The notes under the pieces: model-generated
Told to the model about the DNA's origin: nothing
Database searches by the model: none
Seen by the model: only the letters and a program-made list of their open reading frames with translations
Translations under genes and position numbers: made by a program
Source of the DNA: Candidatus Woesearchaeota archaeon
GTDB lineage: Archaea > Nanobdellota > Nanobdellia > Pacearchaeales > GW2011-AR1
Assembly (NCBI GenBank): GCA_964639615.1
Contig: CAZXHH010000003.1
Span: 18,294 to 82,293, forward strand
Length of the DNA: 64,000 bases
Direction of reading: 5' to 3'
Shown here: positions 25,915 through 52,101 of the stretch, piece after piece
Layout of the letters: every line of letters starts with the position of its first letter
How positions within the stretch are numbered: the first letter of the stretch is position 1

Positions 25915-28900
25915 TTAGGCTGTTGCAGGTTTTCCAATTGCATAAACTACATAATCTGCTGTTGGAGATTCATCAAATTTAAGATTCAATTGAACTTCTC
26001 TAAACACTCTTCTATTAACTCTTAAATTCTCAAATGCACTTGGGAATAAATTTGCATCTCCAAATCCAATCCAATCAAATACTTCTGCTTTTCCTGAAGT
26101 TTTGTCAACCCAGTTTAAGAAAACAACACTATGAATTTCATTTCCAGGCCAAGTTATAGAAAGTATATCTCCTTCCTCAATTGTATCTTTATTAATATCA
26201 GTATTTTTACTGCACAAATCAGTATCTCTCTTTACTATTCCATCTTTTAAACAATATGTAAACGAACCCCAAGCAACATTTGCTGAAAGATAAAGATGCT
26301 GAGTACTATCAAAACAATTAGGATATGATGTTCCGCTATCATAATCCCTAACAACAGGGATTCCTTTCCATACCCAAATCGAACTACTCTTATCAATCTC
26401 TGCTCTCTGAGAAGAAGTTAAAGTATCATATTTTACAAAAGGTGTCCCTTTCAATTCTTCTGCAGCATTAAGAATTCTATTCCTAGTGCTTTGACTACTT
26501 AAATAATCGCACTTGTTATTAATTACTCCGCCGCTTATCCATTTATTGTTAACACAATTCAGAGTTAAAGTTCCAACACATTTATTTTCTCCACTTGTAC
26601 AAGTTCCAAAAACATATCCGCACTTTCCATCAATTTGTCCCTTATTTAACCAAGAAGTTCCAGAGCAAGTATAATAATTTGTTCCGTCACATTTCTCTTG
26701 ATTTGTTGTGCAAGTTAGTGTTGATGTAGAGGGAGGAGTAATTGGAACAAGAGGAGTAACATACCCGCATTTTCCATTGACCTTTCCTTTATTTACCCAA
26801 GCGTTATTTGTACATTGATAATAAGTTGTTCCATCACATTTCTCTTGATTTGTTGTGCAAGTTAGTGTTGAAGATAAAATAATTGGATTTCCATCTTTCA
26901 TTACTGCTCCTTTGTCTTTAAGTATTTTTTTACCCTCTTCATAATTTTTATCTTTGAGAGCAAGAATTAGATAATTATTTTCATTAATTGATTTAACAAT
27001 GTCGCTATTTTTATTATACTCTTCCATTAACCCGCTATCTATTGGCCCTACTGGATTATAAGCAGTCCCACCTATACTCCAATACCATCCATTATTTTGT
27101 TTAAGATATTTATAATAGATTGTATATTTATCTAAAAACTTAAAAACAAAAACGCTTGTAGCTGCACTTGGATCTGAAGAATCAGTAGATAATTTATTTG
27201 TCGTAGTTGTTGAAATTATTTTTTCATCACAGCTTCCAATAAATGCTTGCTCTGTATAAACACAATCTTTCTTTAATTTCATCTCAATAGCTTTACATTC
27301 TTCTCTATCGCAAAAATTAAGTAAACCTGTTCCACATTCAGAACAAGATTTTACATAAAGGAAAATATTTCTTTCAGCAGTTGTAAACATAGACAGTAAA
27401 ACATCCTTATCATAATTTGTACATGGAGGATTTATTTTTTCATAATCACAATCAGAAGAAATTATAGTGCTTATAGGAGTTTGTGTAGTAGAAGTAGATG
27501 TACTACTTGATGTTGTAGAACTTGATGATGAACTAGTAGAAGTTGAAGAACTTGAAGTTCCAGTATTAGTAGAAGTAGTGCTACTTGAAGAAGTTGTTGT
27601 GACAGATTCTAAAACAATTTTACTTCCATCTTCCATTTCAGCATCATTATTATTCAATATCTTTTTTCCTTCAGAATAACTCTTTCCATTAATTAAACTG
27701 ATAACTTCTGAAATGCTAGATGATGGAGTTTTACCCGAATATTTTCCACTAGCAACTGTTGTAGTAGAAGAAGGCATCCAAGTTGAATAATCAGAATAAG
27801 GAGTCCATTTCCAACCAGAATCATATTTAAAGTATATATTTGAACCTCCAGTAAGTCTTACAAATATGTTTCTTTTAATTACAAAAATTTCTGTTTTTTG
27901 CTGCGAAGACAAAGGTGTTGTAGTTGTAGTTTGTGTTACTGGTGAAGATTCCAAAATTATTTCGCTTCCATCTTCCATCATAGCACCATTAATTTTTAAG
28001 ATTGATTTACCCTCGGAATAACTTTTTCCATTAATTGAATTTATTATCTCGAGATTATCTGATCTAGGACTTTCTCCTTTATACTCTCCTGTAGTTACTT
28101 CTGTTTGAGAACTATCCATCCAATTTGTTTTATCTGGAGACCATTTCCATCCATTGTTATATTTATAATATAATCTATCTCCACTAAAATCAAATAATCT
28201 AGTTGTAAAGAAAACTTCAACTTTTTGCTGTGAACTCGAAGTTGCTGGAGCAGATAAACTCTTACCATTGTATAAATCAACTAATTCATAATAAATTTTT
28301 TCAACATTTTCAACATAATTATTATCTCCTGTACATCCCCAACCATTGTATCCTCTTAATGCAGCTTCCCATCCAGAATAACTTCCTATAATCAATCCAT
28401 TACACATAAAATTCCTAGTTCCAGAAGAAGGTTTATAATTTTGTTTCAAAATTTTAGCACCAACATTAATATTTTGCTGTTCATCTTCTAATAAAACTCC
28501 TTTACATTTTGTTAAATCAATAGGCAAACCTAAAGCAAGACTTCCTTTACCACAATGAACTTTTGCATTCACTTGCATTAAACCAATATCTCCTCCAGCA
28601 GATTCTACAGATTTACAATTGCTTTCATGCATCATAATTGCCAACAAAAGAAGCTGATCTGGAATATCATTATTTGTAGAAGCATCAGTAATCCATCTTG
28701 CATAATCCTCACACTTTGTACCACAATAACATTTGTAATTTGAATTGAATACGCTTGTTGAAAGAGATTTCATTAAATCTGCTAATCTATAAGTATTTCT
28801 TTCTTCAAAAGATTTTTCAAGAGTGTTTAGTTTTCCTTCATCATAAACTTTCTTAAAATAAGCTGATTTGTAATCAAATAAGATTGCTGCTCCTTGATAT

Positions 28901-31900
28901 AAATCAGTCAATTCTAGCAATTTTGCAACTTCAATTTGGTCTTGATTAAATTCTTTATTCTCTCCATACACACTATTCCAATCTGTGCTATACTTATCTT
29001 TTAACTTCCACTCCCATCTAGAATATTCTTGATTATATTTATAATAAATTGTTCTCATAGATTTCTCTGAATGGTCAGAAAATTCTACTGTAAATAATCC
29101 AGTATTATCCATCAAAGTTAATTCATTTGTTTTATCTGAAAGTTCAGCACTATCATCTTTTTGAAGCTCATCAATTAATACCTGCATTCCACCAATATAA
29201 TCTCCGTTTTTATTCTGGAGATATTTAATTATTTTAAGATAATTTTCTTCTGTAACTGGATTGGTATATCCCTTTCCAAGCTCTTCAACATTATACCATG
29301 CACCTTCAGCTTTTTGGCATCCATTAGCAAATTGCCACTTTCCATCTTTAAATCTAAAGCAACGATCATTTAATGAAAAAATATTCTTATCATTAAAGAA
29401 TAATTTGGGAGAATTATAATTGTCATTAAATTCTTTATCAAATTCTGGCTTTATAATTTCAGCATTTTTGCCTATTGGAACATCTTCATTGTTTATATTT
29501 AATGTAATATCTTCCATACAAATTCCAAGATCCACATCACATCCTTTTTCACATTTTTTTCTAACAATAGGACCTTTCTCACAAACTCCTGTCTCAGGGT
29601 CTTGCATTCCAAAATAAGTATTTGAAACATAAGGGTCATTAGCATCTATTCCACAAAAATCTCTACATGGAAATTCTACTTTAACTTTTGTTAAAGCCAT
29701 ATCTGAATAAGATTTTCCTCTTAAAAAGAAAAGCTGTCCTTTTTGATTGCTAAAAAATACTTTCTCAATTATTGCATTAATTAATTCTATTTTCTTTAAT
29801 GGAGATCCTTCAGCGTTTATCTCTTCAAGCTTAAGATTAAATGCTTCCTCACTTAGATAATCCTCAGACAAATATTGAAATGATTCTTGTCCAACTTCAT
29901 CTAAAGCTTTTTGTTCTAAATTCATTGCTTTAATAACACTCTTAACGCTATCAGTATCTATCCAACATCCGATATTATCATTTCCACAAGAACCAACTCT
30001 TTTCCATTTTGCATTCTCTAATCCAGCATTTATATCTGTTCCTTGCCCAGGGTCATCGGTCGCACAAATTCTTGTTATTCCTTGAGCATAAATTTGTGGG
30101 TCAATTAAATTATTAGCTGCGCTTTCAAGATTTAGATTTAACAAGCTGTACAAACTTGCACTTCCAGAAATACATTCCTTTTCAGTTTTAATATCTGTTT
30201 GTGAAGCTTGCTGTGTAAGATATAAATCATCCAAATAATTTAAACCAAATGAAGTTGAAACTTCCTTAAACCCACATTCTAATTGTCCGTTTACCTCAAC
30301 GCATAATTCACTATATCCAGAAGGTGCAGTAAAGTCAGTTGTATTTGAAGTGTACCCTCCCTTAGCAATATATCCTGAAGCAACTATCCTGTTTTGAACA
30401 GTATCAAGATAATATGAACTTCCTGAACCTCTTAAATAAACCTTGTAATATGCTCCAGTATCTTTCCCTGCATAAATATGGAAATAAACTTTATAATGTG
30501 ATGTTGGTGGATTTGTAACTGTTGTTAATTGATTTTCATCAAATTTAGCTGTAAATTGTACAGGAGAATCTGGTTCAACTAAATTATCTAAGAAGCTTCC
30601 ACTTCCAGGATAACTTGCTGAAACAAATGTTCCACACAATTCGCTTCCAACCTCTTCAGTTGAACGTACCTTAAATGCTCTATAAGAATCTTCAGCATAA
30701 TATTGTTTGAAATAATCTATTGAATTCTGAGCTGTTTCAAAAGCAGATGAAATTGCTTGATACTCTCCTCCGCCTTTTTTATTCTCTCCAGTTATAACAC
30801 CCAATAATTTTGGAAGAGCAGTTTTTATTATAGGCAATGATTGCTTCCAGAAAAATTCACAAGTGTAAATACTATTAATCTCATCGCATATTCCTATTGT
30901 TTCTCCTGTTTCAATACTTCTTTGCAAACAATCTTTGTAAGATTTCTGAATTGAAAGCCAACTATCAATACCAGTATAAATTCCAGACAAACAGAATGGA
31001 ACATAAACATCTCCTCCTGCCCACTTTGCATTTGGATAACAAAGAGCAATACTCCCAATTATTCCAGATTGAATTACATTTTGAACAGGATATTTTCCTC
31101 CCAAATCACATCTTGAACTTGGACAAATTACAGGATCACATAAATTAAATAATGTAGCACAATCTTTTGCAGACATGAAATCAGTACATTGCGTTGCAGG
31201 ATTTTGTACAGCAGGTTCTCCAACCTTCATCTTTCTTCCATTAATCTTAACATAATTTACATTCTCTTGAGAAGCTCTAGCATTTTGTGCAGCTTGAATT
31301 GCATTGTCTGCTTTTACAACCAATTGATAACTTTCATCTTCTTTTAATCCAGGGAAATTAGTATATTTCTGACCAGTATTCAAATTGAACAATTGGCAGA
31401 TATCATCTCCAAAATCTTGAAGAGAAAATTCTTCTATTCCATTTGCTCCAACATTACATACCCAGAAGCTTGTAACTCTTCCAGATAAATCATATGAAGT
31501 CTCAGGATGTTTAATTCCAGCGTACCATCCATCTTTAACATCGAAGGGTACAACAGCAGGCAATCCCTTATATGGAGAGGTTTCATAATATTTCAATAGA
31601 ATATCTTTATTTCCATAAGAAGATTTGTAAGTATTCTTATAAGATAACTCATTGTATAATTTAAAATGTAAATCAAATGGATTCTGTTTGCCTTTTTCTT
31701 TATCAACTATCTTCAATTCTTCAACACCATTATTAATAACAATTTCATATGTTTGTAAAACAACTCCATCTTTTGGATTATCATAAATAACAAGGTACTC
31801 TTTTGCACTATTTGAAGTCTTTAATGCAAAAGCATAATTTTCTGGAGAAATTGGAGTTTCATCAAATTTCTCAATATTTACATTTGCATAATGAGTTGAT

Positions 31901-34900
31901 TTAAGTTGAACAGGATTAGTCACTTGTATTTCCTGCATTTTTACAATTTTATCAAATGACCCAACCAATGTGTTATCTCCCATACCTGTTCTCTGCTCAA
32001 AGGTATTTTGGACAACAAATTCTTTTGCATTATTTGCAACATCTGCCAAAGAAGAAGTTAATCTTGTTTGTACAACTTCATTAGTAGGGCTATTCTTTAA
32101 AGCTAAAGCATACAATTCTATTTCTCTCAATTGTTCAATAGTATACTTGTTATTCTCCCATCCATCAGTTGTTAAAATTTTATTTAAATTTTCAATTTGA
32201 AGTTCCTTTTTCTGATCATCTGTTAGAGAATTTAATGTGGTCCTTACACTTTCTGAATAATCATCAACAAATCCTTTTTGATTAACATAATTTTGAGCAA
32301 TTCCTTTTTCATCATTCATATTAGCATTTTCAAATTTCTTAATTTCTTCATCCTGATATTTCATTAAAGAATAATAGCTATTAACATCTGATTCAATTGC
32401 ATCTGCATTATCCAAGAAACATGCGTCCATTGATTTATACTGCTTTTCAGAATACATCTCATTACATCTTTCATTCCATCCTCCAGCACCATTCATAACT
32501 TCCTGTCTTGCAATTGATTTTCCACCAACATTTGCAATTAAATTTTTGAAAGTCAAAACAGCTCCTGCTCCCATACAAGCAGACTTCATTGTCTTAACAA
32601 CACTATAAAGAGCATCGGAAGCCTTTTGCCAGTTTTCAATTGATTTATTTAATTGATTGATTCTATCTTTTGTCATTTCTGGAGAAAACTTAAATGGAGA
32701 AACTCTTTTTTCAATACCAATTTTATAACTAAAAGTACTATTACTCTTTGCAAATTTTATTTCTGGAGTTACAGATACTTTTGCTATTTTATTTAAATGA
32801 GTCTCTGTAATTGTAAAACTATATCCACCATGCGTTTCAGACATTCCCTTTTTAAGAGTATAACTATTTGTTTCAAAAGCTTTACTCAATGTTGACCTAT
32901 CTCCCAAATTTAATTTTAATTCAACTGAATCCCCATCAATAGATTGAAGCATAATGAATTCTGGAGTTTCTGCTTCTTTCTCTCTAAATCCTTTAAGAAT
33001 AATTTGTTTATCTTTCATCAAATCGAAAACTTCAGTTTTTCCGTTAGGCCCAGTCACTAAAATTTTAGCACTATAATCTCTTAAACTTGGTTCTTTAATT
33101 TCTTCCAAAGAAATAACCTTTGTAATTCCATTGATTGTTATATCCTTAGAAGAAATTTGAGAATTTGAAAGATGCAATTCGTCTGCACACATATATAAGC
33201 TTCTATAAGAAAATGGATAACTCTCTTCATATTTTTTACATAATTCAAGCATACTCTTTCTCTGTCCAGCCCAACTTGCAAGATAAATTTCTTCATACAA
33301 TGCTTTTTGCCCTAATGTCTCCTCTGAATTTTCTTTTTCGAGTTCTCCAGAAAATCTATTAATCACTGTTTCAAAATCATCCATTGCATTTTGATAGTAT
33401 GTATTAAATTCTTCGTCTTTAATTTCTAAATTTTCAGCATTTGCAAATCCCCCAAGAATAACGAAATTTCCTTCAACATTTTCTTCTTTTTGATTGTAAT
33501 ATAAATCATAAAAAGATTCACCTTTAATTACCCACTTTCCAAATTGCATTGTTTTTCCTGCAATATAATTTGCAAATTTACTTGTTGCGTCTAATGCTGA
33601 TGCTCCGCTTGATGAAACATGTTTAACAGTATTTGCATGAGAGGCTACTGACTCAAGTTCATCATCAGTTAACACCTCCTTATGTACTGGTAAAGCAACA
33701 AGATAAGCATACAATTTATTAAAATCAGTAGAATCATCTTCTGTTCCAACATACCCTAAATAAACTGATTTTGTTCCATCAGCTGTTTTATACAACCAAT
33801 CTCCAACATTATATACTCCTTCTTTTCCATTGATTGTTAAATTAATCTGAGGGAAAACTCTTAAAGTAAATGCTTTTCTTTCACTTGCTTCATCTGCTCC
33901 ACTACATCTTATTGTTACATCAGAATTAACTCCATTTTTATTCATATCAATTACCTTACATTTATTATCATAGAACATTTCATCTTCTGCAACTTCAGAA
34001 TAATCTTCATTTACTTTTAGACTCGCTCTTGTTTGCGGGTCTTCAACACCATTAAGAGTTAATTTCAAACTTGAAAGACATGGGCTTATTCCTGGAAGAT
34101 AGATTTTATCTGCTGTTGATTCACCTTCTTTCAATTTTATATTAGAGGCGTATTTCGCAAGGCTAAATTCTCTATCTCGCTTAGACAATCCACTTGCAAC
34201 TTCACTATCAGAATAAATTGAAATAGTTGCTGTTTTATCATCCCCGTCAACAGACTCTGCTCTTAAATATCCTCTTCCCTGCCAGAAACTGTAATGTTTA
34301 TAATTGTCTTGCCACTCTTCATCATCCTCAAATACTGGAAGATAAAATACTGCTTTTCCTATTCCATAACTATTCTCAACATCGTAAGTTAGCTCTGCAG
34401 TTAAATTTCCTTCAACCCAACAAACCTCTCCTCCTAATCCTCCTGCTGCTTTTTTACAATTTTTTAATGCAGATTCATTTGGTTGCTGTCTTAGAGTAAT
34501 CATTACATATCCGAGATTTTGCAAAGTTGCTGGATTTTCTAATTTTTGCACATTATATGAAGAACCTAATGCTGCTTGTGCAGGCTGATAGCCCAAGTTT
34601 AATACTTCTTTTGGATGCTGACCAGAAAAAGTAATCCAATCAATTGCTTTAACGTCTACAAAAGGATTGATTTGCAAAGCGTTTAATTGACAAAAAACAC
34701 GTACATTTTCTTCCTCCAATAAATCGCTTCTAACAACAGCTGGAGTACAACTCAATGGGGCTATTTGCATTATAAAATCTGTTCCCTGAGTACACATCTC
34801 GTCGTTAATTCTCAAACTTTGCGAATTTGAGAAAATACCAAGACCCATTGCATTGTTATACTGACTTGAATAATAAGATTGAACATAAGCTGAAGTAAAT

Positions 34901-34965
34901 ACTAAAGAAAATAAGAATACAGCCAAAAACAAAATACTAATAACTAATTTTTTAGAAAAATTCAT
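25915..34965 (-). CDS. Giant (3016 aa) secreted multidomain surface protein carrying an SLT lytic-transglycosylase domain
   Basis: Signal peptide (MNFSKKLVISILFLAVFLFSLVFTSAYVQ), ~2000 aa of unassigned N-terminal region, an SLT domain, three ~95-aa repeat modules, a Ser/Thr-rich linker, Cys-rich modules and a C-terminal Cys/His domain. Its start ATG overlaps the upstream gene's stop. Confidence 0.8.
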   Translation of the reverse strand: MNFSKKLVISILFLAVFLFSLVFTSAYVQSYYSSQYNNAMGLGIFSNSQSLRINDEMCTQGTDFIMQIAPLSCTPAVVRSDLLEEENVRVFCQLNALQINPFVDVKAIDWITFSGQHPKEVLNLGYQPAQAALGSSYNVQKLENPATLQNLGYVMITLRQQPNESALKNCKKAAGGLGGEVCWVEGNLTAELTYDVENSYGIGKAVFYLPVFEDDEEWQDNYKHYSFWQGRGYLRAESVDGDDKTATISIYSDSEVASGLSKRDREFSLAKYASNIKLKEGESTADKIYLPGISPCLSSLKLTLNGVEDPQTRASLKVNEDYSEVAEDEMFYDNKCKVIDMNKNGVNSDVTIRCSGADEASERKAFTLRVFPQINLTINGKEGVYNVGDWLYKTADGTKSVYLGYVGTEDDSTDFNKLYAYLVALPVHKEVLTDDELESVASHANTVKHVSSSGASALDATSKFANYIAGKTMQFGKWVIKGESFYDLYYNQKEENVEGNFVILGGFANAENLEIKDEEFNTYYQNAMDDFETVINRFSGELEKENSEETLGQKALYEEIYLASWAGQRKSMLELCKKYEESYPFSYRSLYMCADELHLSNSQISSKDITINGITKVISLEEIKEPSLRDYSAKILVTGPNGKTEVFDLMKDKQIILKGFREKEAETPEFIMLQSIDGDSVELKLNLGDRSTLSKAFETNSYTLKKGMSETHGGYSFTITETHLNKIAKVSVTPEIKFAKSNSTFSYKIGIEKRVSPFKFSPEMTKDRINQLNKSIENWQKASDALYSVVKTMKSACMGAGAVLTFKNLIANVGGKSIARQEVMNGAGGWNERCNEMYSEKQYKSMDACFLDNADAIESDVNSYYSLMKYQDEEIKKFENANMNDEKGIAQNYVNQKGFVDDYSESVRTTLNSLTDDQKKELQIENLNKILTTDGWENNKYTIEQLREIELYALALKNSPTNEVVQTRLTSSLADVANNAKEFVVQNTFEQRTGMGDNTLVGSFDKIVKMQEIQVTNPVQLKSTHYANVNIEKFDETPISPENYAFALKTSNSAKEYLVIYDNPKDGVVLQTYEIVINNGVEELKIVDKEKGKQNPFDLHFKLYNELSYKNTYKSSYGNKDILLKYYETSPYKGLPAVVPFDVKDGWYAGIKHPETSYDLSGRVTSFWVCNVGANGIEEFSLQDFGDDICQLFNLNTGQKYTNFPGLKEDESYQLVVKADNAIQAAQNARASQENVNYVKINGRKMKVGEPAVQNPATQCTDFMSAKDCATLFNLCDPVICPSSRCDLGGKYPVQNVIQSGIIGSIALCYPNAKWAGGDVYVPFCLSGIYTGIDSWLSIQKSYKDCLQRSIETGETIGICDEINSIYTCEFFWKQSLPIIKTALPKLLGVITGENKKGGGEYQAISSAFETAQNSIDYFKQYYAEDSYRAFKVRSTEEVGSELCGTFVSASYPGSGSFLDNLVEPDSPVQFTAKFDENQLTTVTNPPTSHYKVYFHIYAGKDTGAYYKVYLRGSGSSYYLDTVQNRIVASGYIAKGGYTSNTTDFTAPSGYSELCVEVNGQLECGFKEVSTSFGLNYLDDLYLTQQASQTDIKTEKECISGSASLYSLLNLNLESAANNLIDPQIYAQGITRICATDDPGQGTDINAGLENAKWKRVGSCGNDNIGCWIDTDSVKSVIKAMNLEQKALDEVGQESFQYLSEDYLSEEAFNLKLEEINAEGSPLKKIELINAIIEKVFFSNQKGQLFFLRGKSYSDMALTKVKVEFPCRDFCGIDANDPYVSNTYFGMQDPETGVCEKGPIVRKKCEKGCDVDLGICMEDITLNINNEDVPIGKNAEIIKPEFDKEFNDNYNSPKLFFNDKNIFSLNDRCFRFKDGKWQFANGCQKAEGAWYNVEELGKGYTNPVTEENYLKIIKYLQNKNGDYIGGMQVLIDELQKDDSAELSDKTNELTLMDNTGLFTVEFSDHSEKSMRTIYYKYNQEYSRWEWKLKDKYSTDWNSVYGENKEFNQDQIEVAKLLELTDLYQGAAILFDYKSAYFKKVYDEGKLNTLEKSFEERNTYRLADLMKSLSTSVFNSNYKCYCGTKCEDYARWITDASTNNDIPDQLLLLAIMMHESNCKSVESAGGDIGLMQVNAKVHCGKGSLALGLPIDLTKCKGVLLEDEQQNINVGAKILKQNYKPSSGTRNFMCNGLIIGSYSGWEAALRGYNGWGCTGDNNYVENVEKIYYELVDLYNGKSLSAPATSSSQQKVEVFFTTRLFDFSGDRLYYKYNNGWKWSPDKTNWMDSSQTEVTTGEYKGESPRSDNLEIINSINGKSYSEGKSILKINGAMMEDGSEIILESSPVTQTTTTTPLSSQQKTEIFVIKRNIFVRLTGGSNIYFKYDSGWKWTPYSDYSTWMPSSTTTVASGKYSGKTPSSSISEVISLINGKSYSEGKKILNNNDAEMEDGSKIVLESVTTTSSSSTTSTNTGTSSSSTSTSSSSSSTTSSSTSTSTTQTPISTIISSDCDYEKINPPCTNYDKDVLLSMFTTAERNIFLYVKSCSECGTGLLNFCDREECKAIEMKLKKDCVYTEQAFIGSCDEKIISTTTTNKLSTDSSDPSAATSVFVFKFLDKYTIYYKYLKQNNGWYWSIGGTAYNPVGPIDSGLMEEYNKNSDIVKSINENNYLILALKDKNYEEGKKILKDKGAVMKDGNPIILSSTLTCTTNQEKCDGTTYYQCTNNAWVNKGKVNGKCGYVTPLVPITPPSTSTLTCTTNQEKCDGTNYYTCSGTSWLNKGQIDGKCGYVFGTCTSGENKCVGTLTLNCVNNKWISGGVINNKCDYLSSQSTRNRILNAAEELKGTPFVKYDTLTSSQRAEIDKSSSIWVWKGIPVVRDYDSGTSYPNCFDSTQHLYLSANVAWGSFTYCLKDGIVKRDTDLCSKNTDINKDTIEEGDILSITWPGNEIHSVVFLNWVDKTSGKAEVFDWIGFGDANLFPSAFENLRVNRRVFREVQLNLKFDESPTADYVVYAIGKPATA
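26545..26900 (-). repeat. Three tandem Cys-rich ~37-aa modules within the giant protein
   Basis: LTCTTNQEKCDGTTYYQCTNNAWVNKGKVNGKCGYV occurs twice near-identically and a third time diverged. The DNA repeat CCGTCACATTTCTCTTGATTTGTTGTGCAAGTTAGTGTTGA occurs at ~26685 and ~26835. Confidence 0.6.
27465..27612 (-). repeat. Ser/Thr-rich low-complexity linker within the giant protein
   Basis: Translates to TTTSSSSTTSTNTGTSSSSTSTSSSSSSTTSSSTSTSTTQTP, a likely O-glycosylated stalk. The DNA is GTAGAAGT-like repeats. Confidence 0.6.
28276..28715 (-). other. SLT (family-1 lytic transglycosylase / lysozyme-like) domain within the giant protein
   Basis: Motifs AIMMHESNCKSVESAGGDIGLMQVN (ES...GLMQ), NINVGAKILKQNY and ALRGYNGWG match the SLT catalytic-Glu, N..GA.YL and AYNAG blocks. 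This spans about protein residues 2085..2230. Confidence 0.7.
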
Positions 34966-51974: not shown

Positions 51975-51987
51975 CTTTATTTATCAT

Positions 51988-52101
51988 AGCCCCACCAGGA
52001 TTCGAACCTGGGTCCCGGCCTCTCCTTGCATAAGCGAGATGTGAAAAATGCTCGCATTTTACACCAAAGGGCCGTATACTTGACCACTGTACTATGGGGC
52101 T
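51988..52101 (-). tRNA. tRNA-Gln (TTG) with a ~42-nt intron after position 37
   Basis: Exons fold as acceptor AGCCCCA/TGGGGCT, anticodon stem CGGCC/GGCCG and loop CTTTGG^A, with T-arm CCAGG-TTCGAAT-CCTGG. The intron TGTAAAATGCGAGC...CTCGCTTATGCAAGGAG forms a GCGAG/CTCGC helix. The ORF-track entry 51977..52174 is spurious. Confidence 0.65.

Follow-up and report, generated by a model that had tools for sequence, protein, structure and literature searches.

We asked what kind of enzyme, if any, lies at the C-terminus of a giant protein of 3,016 amino acids (aa) encoded in a 64,000-nucleotide stretch of DNA from a Candidatus Woesearchaeota archaeon (GenBank assembly GCA_964639615.1, contig CAZXHH010000003.1, positions 18,294 to 82,293 of the forward strand). 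The whole of this stretch is called the window below. A reading made from the sequence alone (the original prediction) had proposed that the last ~180 residues of the protein, which place a Cys after a run of small residues and a His in a hydrophobic strand, may be a papain-fold amidase of the CHAP or NlpC/P60 type, and that its combination with an SLT domain recalls phage tail lysins and the wall hydrolases associated with type IV and type VII secretion systems. Our analysis indicates that this C-terminus (aa 2822-3016) very probably has a divergent papain fold of the NlpC/P60/CHAP branch. We also consider it reasonably probable that it is an active peptidoglycan peptidase or amidase, that is, a divergent NlpC/P60/CHAP papain-fold cysteine hydrolase of clan CA.

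A conserved Cys/His domain at the C-terminus of giant proteins

Both peptides quoted in the original prediction (DYDSGTSYPNCFDSTQHLYLSANVAWGSF and GNEIHSVVFLNWVDKTSGKAEVFDWIG) are present in the translation of the giant open reading frame (ORF). As it had described, the Cys follows a small-residue run ('SGTSYPN') and the His stands in a hydrophobic strand context ('EIHSVVFLNW', strand 122-133 of the model described below). The C-terminal unit was thus correctly recognized, while its length had been set somewhat short, as the folded unit comprises 195 aa and opens with the helix 'TRNRILNAAEELKGTPFV'. Scans with Pfam, NCBIfam and PHROGs gave no match for these 195 aa (Pfam and NCBIfam even at E<=1), and a word-indexed search with the domain returned three relatives only. 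An exhaustive HMMER search, using a profile of these first relatives against 1.84 billion cluster representatives (E<=1e-3), retrieved 37 proteins, almost all of which carry the domain at the C-terminal end of homologous giants.

We then considered conservation in an alignment of 33 trimmed domains (A2), across which identity to the window domain falls to 21-35%. Numbered from the start of the domain, the two catalytic candidates are Cys2884 (C63), found in 31 of 32 sequences, and His2945 (H124), found in 33 of 33; the single sequence without the Cys comes from a bacterial protein, in which it is a second and degenerate copy. Other conserved positions are G111, F128 and W131 (33/33 each), D112 (30/33) and W144 (30/32). 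This Cys/His pattern far exceeds chance, and the near-invariance of Cys and His at such low overall identity suggests a maintained active site. The candidate third residue, Asp2964 (D143), occupies a column with 27 D, 2 N, 1 E and 2 S among 32 sequences. H69 was rejected as a catalytic residue: it never varies in the closest subfamily, yet outside it the position holds Tyr, Phe or some other residue.

The family-specific insertion contains a pair of Cys residues, C84 and C97. C97 is retained in 30 of 31 sequences and C84 in the close subfamily, a nearby Cys ('C.YSD') being present elsewhere. The two residues probably form a disulfide, which is consistent with an extracellular protein. The coordinates of all these features are collected in Table 1.

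Table 1. Features of the giant gene and its surroundings, in window coordinates unless stated otherwise
Feature	Residues	Position	Strand	Basis or remark
Giant ORF	3,016 aa	25915..34965	(-)	translation; stop codon 25915-25917
Hydrophobic N-terminal signal peptide or membrane anchor (MNFSKKLVISILFLAVFLFSLVFTSAYVQS)		34876..34965	(-)	read from sequence
Conserved N-terminal part, holding the ~1,760-aa core	aa 1-2050	28816-34965	(-)	homolog comparison
SLT lytic transglycosylase domain	aa 2097-2207	28345..28677	(-)	Pfam PF01464 and motifs
Region between SLT and C-terminal domain	aa 2208-2821	26503-28344	(-)	sequence inspection
Three Cys-rich ~33-aa repeats	aa 2703-2821	26503..26859	(-)	adjoin the Cys/His domain on its upstream side
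C-terminal Cys/His domain, 195 aa	aa 2822-3016	25918..26502	(-)	family alignment and AlphaFold2 model
Predicted nucleophile (C63)	Cys2884	26314-26316	(-)	after 'SGTSYPN'; motif N-C-[FW]-[DE]-[SA]
Cys pair of family-specific insertion (C84, C97)	Cys2905, Cys2918	26212..26253	(-)	conservation
Predicted general base (H124)	His2945	26131-26133	(-)	in 'EIHSVVFLNW'; family motif 'GD.LS.....H.V.F..W'
Candidate third residue (D143, 'FDWIG')	Asp2964	26074..26076	(-)	strand 138-147
ORF just upstream of the giant gene	619 aa	34962-36821	(-)	4-nt overlap with giant gene start
Giant-gene counterpart in a Woesearchaeota metagenome-assembled genome		L003 200-5116		compared with window 25915-34965 (-)

Predicted fold and relation to the NlpC/P60 and CHAP families

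Structure prediction had been proposed as the check on the original assignment, and its outcome agreed with it. Using the 33-sequence alignment, AlphaFold2 returned a papain-like model with a predicted local distance difference test (pLDDT) of 90.1 and a predicted template modelling score (pTM) of 0.88; from 4 sequences the model was poor (pLDDT 43). The predicted fold is of the papain-like alpha+beta type, and its elements run as helix 3-17, a short strand ('PFVK'), an insertion, helix 63-73, strands 113-118, 122-133 and 138-147, a helix and two final strands. In the model this order is that of NlpC/P60 proteins: a helix, the nucleophile helix, and a beta-meander with the His on its second strand. 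The conserved Cys precedes the His in sequence and is predicted to lie at a helix N-terminus as in NlpC/P60, C63 being the first residue of helix 63-73 and capping it, and the conserved His is predicted to lie at the start of the strand that follows a 'GD-hydrophobic' strand. More precisely, strand 113-118 ('ILSITW') comes after the G-D pair, H124 is the third residue of strand 122-133, and strand 138-147 holds D143, W144 and G146. The model also shows structural similarity to solved CHAP domains, with 10-14% identity in structural alignments and an aligned core of ~105 of the 195 residues, the remainder being family-specific insertion. Foldseek against the viral models of BFVD gave one barely significant match (E 8.7e-4) and otherwise weak ones, to CHAP and endolysin proteins, and the weak Foldseek matches were enriched for the CwlO, MepS, LytE, RipA/B, SagA, PlyC and LysGH15 families.

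We also looked for a connection at the sequence level, which was found through bacterial proteins. A profile of the window subfamily reached bacterial P0022 (E 1.6e-5) and P0025 (E 2.8e-5) in the library of 1.84 billion representatives, and a broader profile retrieved 341 proteins, mostly small secreted hypotheticals of Psychrobacter and other Gammaproteobacteria, with the motif GSCWDY...GDWLYY...EHSGIFVxWVDK...LSYxGE. These bacterial hypotheticals (P0039-P0155) are the nearest sequence relatives beyond the archaeal giants. They have the Cys, GD, His, F, W and G positions in common with the window domain, but they are secreted proteins only 170-330 aa long that often repeat the domain in 2-3 tandem copies, they lack the Cys-pair insertion, and they show Ser-Tyr at the Asp-Trp of the archaeal domain. 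Aligning the four closest archaeal sequences (A1) with 12 bacterial domains (A3) by hhalign gave 96.4% probability (E 1.1e-9) and brought the Cys and His positions of the two families into register. In turn, bacterial P0039 matched Pfam NLPC_P60 (E 6.3e-7, 29.8 bits with a cut-off of 23) over exactly the Cys-to-His segment; six more bacterial members matched NLPC_P60 below threshold, some gave weak Amidase_6 matches, and two relatives bear the UniRef names 'CHAP domain-containing' and 'Peptidase C51 domain-containing'. The NlpC/P60 membership of the window domain at the sequence level therefore rests on this transitive bacterial link together with the structure. With the conserved Cys and His at canonical positions in the model and the bacterial bridge, the CHAP/NlpC-P60-like call of the original prediction gains support.

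Three of the bacterial proteins (P0022, P0025 and P0040) contain two or three tandem domain copies, of which the first retains 'SCWDY' while the later ones have Ser instead of Cys (GTSRNY, GTSQNY, GSSPDY, GTSLDY). Such an arrangement suggests, by its residues, a catalytic copy accompanied by pseudo-enzyme copies.

Compared with characterized families, the window domain is clearly distant. From NlpC/P60 proteins (PF00877, MEROPS C40), such as Trichomonas NlpC1 (6bim), C. difficile Acd24020 (7cfl), B. subtilis CwlO and LytE or E. coli MepS, it differs by the lack of a PF00877 match, by ~90 extra residues (insertions 25-61 and 85-110 and a C-terminal extension), by its conserved Cys pair, by a nucleophile motif N-C-F/W-D-S in place of the canonical D-C-S-G, and by a much longer hairpin after the His, with no obvious equivalent of the canonical His/Asn/Gln. 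Because this hairpin is longer, the third residue expected at His+10-12 has no counterpart. D143 stands at His+19, which resembles the His-to-Glu spacing of CHAP enzymes; by DSSP register in the predicted model, it may not sit directly opposite H124. The whole family likewise differs from CHAP proteins (PF05257, MEROPS C51), such as LysIME-EF1 (6ist), the LysGH15 CHAP (4olk), PlyC (4f88) and PlyPy (5udm), in that none of the 33 A2 members matched the PF05257 hidden Markov model (HMM) at E<=1. The PF00877 HMM matched neither the window domain nor the whole protein at E<=1, and only 1 of the 33 A2 members gave a weak hit (E 0.045). Alignments by hhalign with E. coli MepS, MepH, NlpC and YafL covered 'GD...H' only and were non-significant; a local one placed H124 on the catalytic His of MepS ('GDLVLF..GRHVGIY'), again with non-significant scores.

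Partner domains and possible activities

The giant protein consists of an N-terminal signal or anchor, a conserved core of ~1,760 aa and then a variable C-terminal enzyme region. Its hydrophobic N-terminus suggests that it is exported and either surface-anchored or secreted. The SLT domain, whose presence in the same protein the original prediction had pointed out, matches PF01464 at E 8e-6 (25.9 bits, gathering cut-off 21.3), has the motifs ES, GLMQ and YNGWG, and is the sole Pfam domain detected in the 3,016 aa. Between it and the Cys/His domain, inspection of aa 2208-2821 revealed three 'YYKY..GWKWS' modules (near aa 2266, 2378 and 2617), a Ser/Thr-rich linker (aa ~2455-2500) and Cys-rich repeats with the consensus 'CTTNQEKCDGT.YY.C....W.NKG...GKCGY'. 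All of these are without a Pfam match, and they are possibly wall-binding or spacer modules. An element like the Cys-rich repeat ('DGKCGYTS') also precedes the Cys/His domain in P0011 and P0012. The core is common to 15 other giants at E=0 and to P0021 at E 3.4e-303; these homologs are mostly ~1,900-2,700 aa long and have the Cys/His domain at or near their C-terminus. For aa 1-2050, neither a Pfam nor a PDB sequence relative was found. The core holds a strikingly conserved Cys-rich hydrophobic stretch ('CDPVICPSSRCDLGGKYPVQNVIQSGIIGS...CEFFWKQSLP').

Pairing of SLT with the Cys/His domain is recurrent: at least eight relatives show it, and either domain can come first. The two are fused in the window protein and in P0001, P0012, P0017, P0021 and P0036; in a Woesearchaeota metagenome-assembled genome (MAG) it is the Cys/His domain that precedes SLT. 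P0009, named 'NlpC/P60 family protein [Nanobdellota archaeon]' at NCBI, has a canonical NLPC_P60 domain (E 1.6e-13) in addition to the Cys/His domain and an SLT domain just under the gathering score (E 2.5e-4, 21.0 bits with a cut-off of 21.3), and P0007 combines Peptidase_M23 with the Cys/His domain. The Cys/His domain occurs in more giant homologs than SLT does. Of the recognisable modules in the shuffled C-terminal cassette it is the most constant, and every partner whose function is known is a murein hydrolase. The canonical domain of P0009 (MGM5480168.1, aa 268-376) reads 'GFDSSGW', with Ser where the Cys of 'DCSG' is expected, and the divergent C-terminal domain of the same protein retains its own Cys. 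A homolog search started from this canonical domain, for a broader profile, found none.

From the family conservation of the domain, its predicted fold and its recurrent pairing with SLT, M23 and canonical NlpC/P60, we infer catalytic competence, a peptidoglycan substrate and a biological role. Cys2884, at the helix N-terminus, would act as the nucleophile and His2945, on the adjacent beta-sheet, as the general base, the two forming a thiolate-imidazolium pair in which Asp2964 or another residue may orient the His. The domain would stand at the tip of a giant protein that is secreted or anchored to the cell surface and contacts a bacterial host or prey, and would most likely cut amide bonds of peptidoglycan, whether in the stem peptide, in the cross-link or at the MurNAc-L-Ala bond. 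As the upstream SLT would cut the glycan strands, both domains together could locally open the wall of the host or prey.

Several results weigh against this interpretation. At E<=1 the window domain matches nothing in NCBIfam and none of the Pfam models NLPC_P60, CHAP and Amidase_6; PDB searches with the single sequence and with three profiles returned chance matches only; Foldseek of the model against PDB gave nothing at E<1e-3; and hhalign against a 5-sequence E. coli NlpC/P60 alignment was non-significant (6.5% for the archaeal-rich alignment, 47.6% for the bacterial family). Nor is there an evident third residue, the candidate D143 being Ser in the bacterial relatives. At the level of context, L001 carries ankyrin repeats in place of SLT, and several giant homologs are without any Pfam domain and hence without a recognisable wall-degrading partner. 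Considering these last two observations, a peptidoglycan substrate is not forced by the context.

Among the chance PDB look-alikes, 'WVDKTSGKAEVFDWIG' resembled framework 2 of antibody heavy-chain variable (VH) domains ('WVKQSHGKSLEWIG', E ~0.1-0.5), and 'GD.LS....HNVIF' resembled the copper-site strand of plastocyanin (E ~0.5); another was anthrax EF. The antibody and plastocyanin look-alikes fall in aa ~2943-2992 (window 25990-26140, minus strand). We rejected a cupredoxin reading, since in this domain the Cys comes before the His and stands at the start of a helix.

A papain-like fold with an active Cys-His pair might also serve another chemistry or target, such as a transglutaminase or acyltransferase cross-linking the archaeon to a host surface, a protease of host envelope proteins, or a self-processing domain by which modules of the giant protein are set free; we judge this unlikely. 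To the same degree unlikely, in our view, is a related proposal in which the Cys/His domain, not SLT, is the constant effector of a DPANN-specific giant apparatus, made of the core and a fast-evolving shuffled cassette, and acts on a substrate other than the murein stem peptide, be it a protein or lipoprotein of the host envelope or a transamidation that tethers the archaeon to its host.

By analogy with PeiW and PeiP, the target might instead be an archaeal envelope polymer, for instance the pseudomurein of methanogen partners, although we think this quite improbable. A Cys-His-Asp arrangement is also found in these pseudomurein endoisopeptidases, which counts in its favour. So does the published statement that DPANN hosts are often archaea (PMC8204110).

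Still less probable is a non-catalytic pseudo-enzyme, with the NlpC/P60 scaffold serving as a wall-binding or adhesion module. The great divergence of the family, its ~90 inserted residues, the elusive third residue, the later bacterial copies without Cys and the DSSG in place of DCSG in the canonical domain of P0009 would all agree with such a loss of activity, but Cys and His are essentially invariant in the archaeal giants over deep divergence, the signature of a maintained active site. Finally, the absence of a direct HMM match, the non-significant Foldseek results, the pLDDT of 43 from 4 sequences and the chance resemblance of 'GD..HNVIF' to plastocyanin could be read as signs of an artefactual fold call, with a Cys and a His that are there by accident or for structural reasons, for instance as metal or disulfide ligands; we regard this as extremely improbable.

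Genomic setting, known systems and biological meaning

The giant gene has as neighbours genes for tRNA-Leu, TFIIB, the ribosomal proteins S8e and S3Ae, a tRNase Z-like protein, SulP and a class II aminoacyl-tRNA synthetase, and the GC content is uniform (0.27-0.31). A locus search with the 4-sequence domain alignment gave one Woesearchaeota locus, in the Candidatus Woesearchaeota MAG, where the order giant gene, TFIIB, S8e is identical to that of the window and where TFIIB and S8e are 90% and 69% identical to those of the window; on a second metagenomic contig, TFIIB likewise adjoins the 3' end of the giant gene. Considering these archaeal housekeeping neighbours, the uniform GC and the conserved synteny, the giant gene is chromosomal in a Woesearchaeota-type DPANN archaeon. 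An origin from a phage, a plasmid or a secretion-system island was rejected on the same grounds, with synteny on two other contigs, and because tblastn of the Cys/His domain gave no match in 50,697 phage or 72,556 plasmid records. The phage and secretion-system setting evoked in the original prediction thus holds as an analogy only.

Compared with the MAG, in which TFIIB is 90% identical, identity drops to 38% for the giant core and to 33-34% for the Cys/His domain, and SLT and the Cys/His domain have changed places. The giant gene therefore evolves much faster and in a more modular way than its neighbours. The 619-aa ORF just upstream, which has no Pfam match, overlaps the start of the giant gene and is probably co-transcribed with it. 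Elsewhere in the window, a tRNA of 115 nt at 51987-52101 on the minus strand was detected by Rfam (52.4 bits) and not reported by ARAGORN; it is probably an intron-containing archaeal tRNA.

Multi-enzyme wall hydrolases are known from conjugation and phage systems: PrgK of pCF10 combines LytM, SLT and CHAP, TraG of pIP501 combines SLT and CHAP, and phage tail lysins belong to the same group. Like these, the giant family would join a glycan cutter (SLT) and a peptide cutter (papain-fold, sometimes M23) in one exported protein that breaches the wall locally, and its module set (SLT, M23, NlpC/P60-like) is that of conjugation and phage wall hydrolases. Unlike them, the window gene is chromosomal and archaeal, and its modules are carried on a ~1,760-aa core without known homolog. 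The kind of enzyme and its pairing with SLT are classical.

For giant SLT proteins of Woesearchaeota and Pacearchaeota, a role in binding or degrading bacterial walls has already been put forward (PMC8204110, PMC9723730). In particular, Castelle et al. 2021 (PMC8204110) described fam00969 as extracellular 'murein-like lytic transglycosylase' giants that reach ~3,000 aa, a description that the window protein fits by its 3,016 aa, its N-terminal signal or anchor, its SLT domain and its DPANN host. Unlike the published accounts, which cover SLT alone, the window protein adds the Cys/His domain. The text of PMC8204110 contains no NlpC, amidase or endopeptidase term and that of PMC9723730 no NlpC or endopeptidase term, and a search of the literature available to us that paired Woesearchaeota with NlpC or CHAP found nothing. 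The Cys/His domain is very probably a new, very divergent family in the known NlpC/P60/CHAP superfamily, within an already noted class of giant DPANN proteins. The proposed role in wall cutting fits with archaeal peptidoglycan hydrolases that were shown by experiment to kill bacteria (PMC12352652).

The family adds to the superfamily a divergent member with a bacterial sister group, both overlooked by current Pfam and NCBIfam models, and its profile can be used for annotating metagenomes. A compact construct of 195 aa, together with point mutants of C2884 and H2945, is well suited to work on activity and host range using sacculi. For the uncultured Woesearchaeota and Pacearchaeota, the giant 'murein transglycosylases' are among the few genomic hints that some of them live on, or prey on, bacteria. 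Should the giants also carry a conserved papain-fold hydrolase that annotation has so far missed, each would be a complete wall-breaching enzyme with two activities, one on the glycan and one on the peptide. The Cys/His domain persists where SLT is swapped for ankyrin repeats or where M23 joins; if it were the constant effector of the giant apparatus and acted on something other than the murein stem peptide, it would represent a new functional class in the papain-fold superfamily, devoted to inter-domain episymbiosis.

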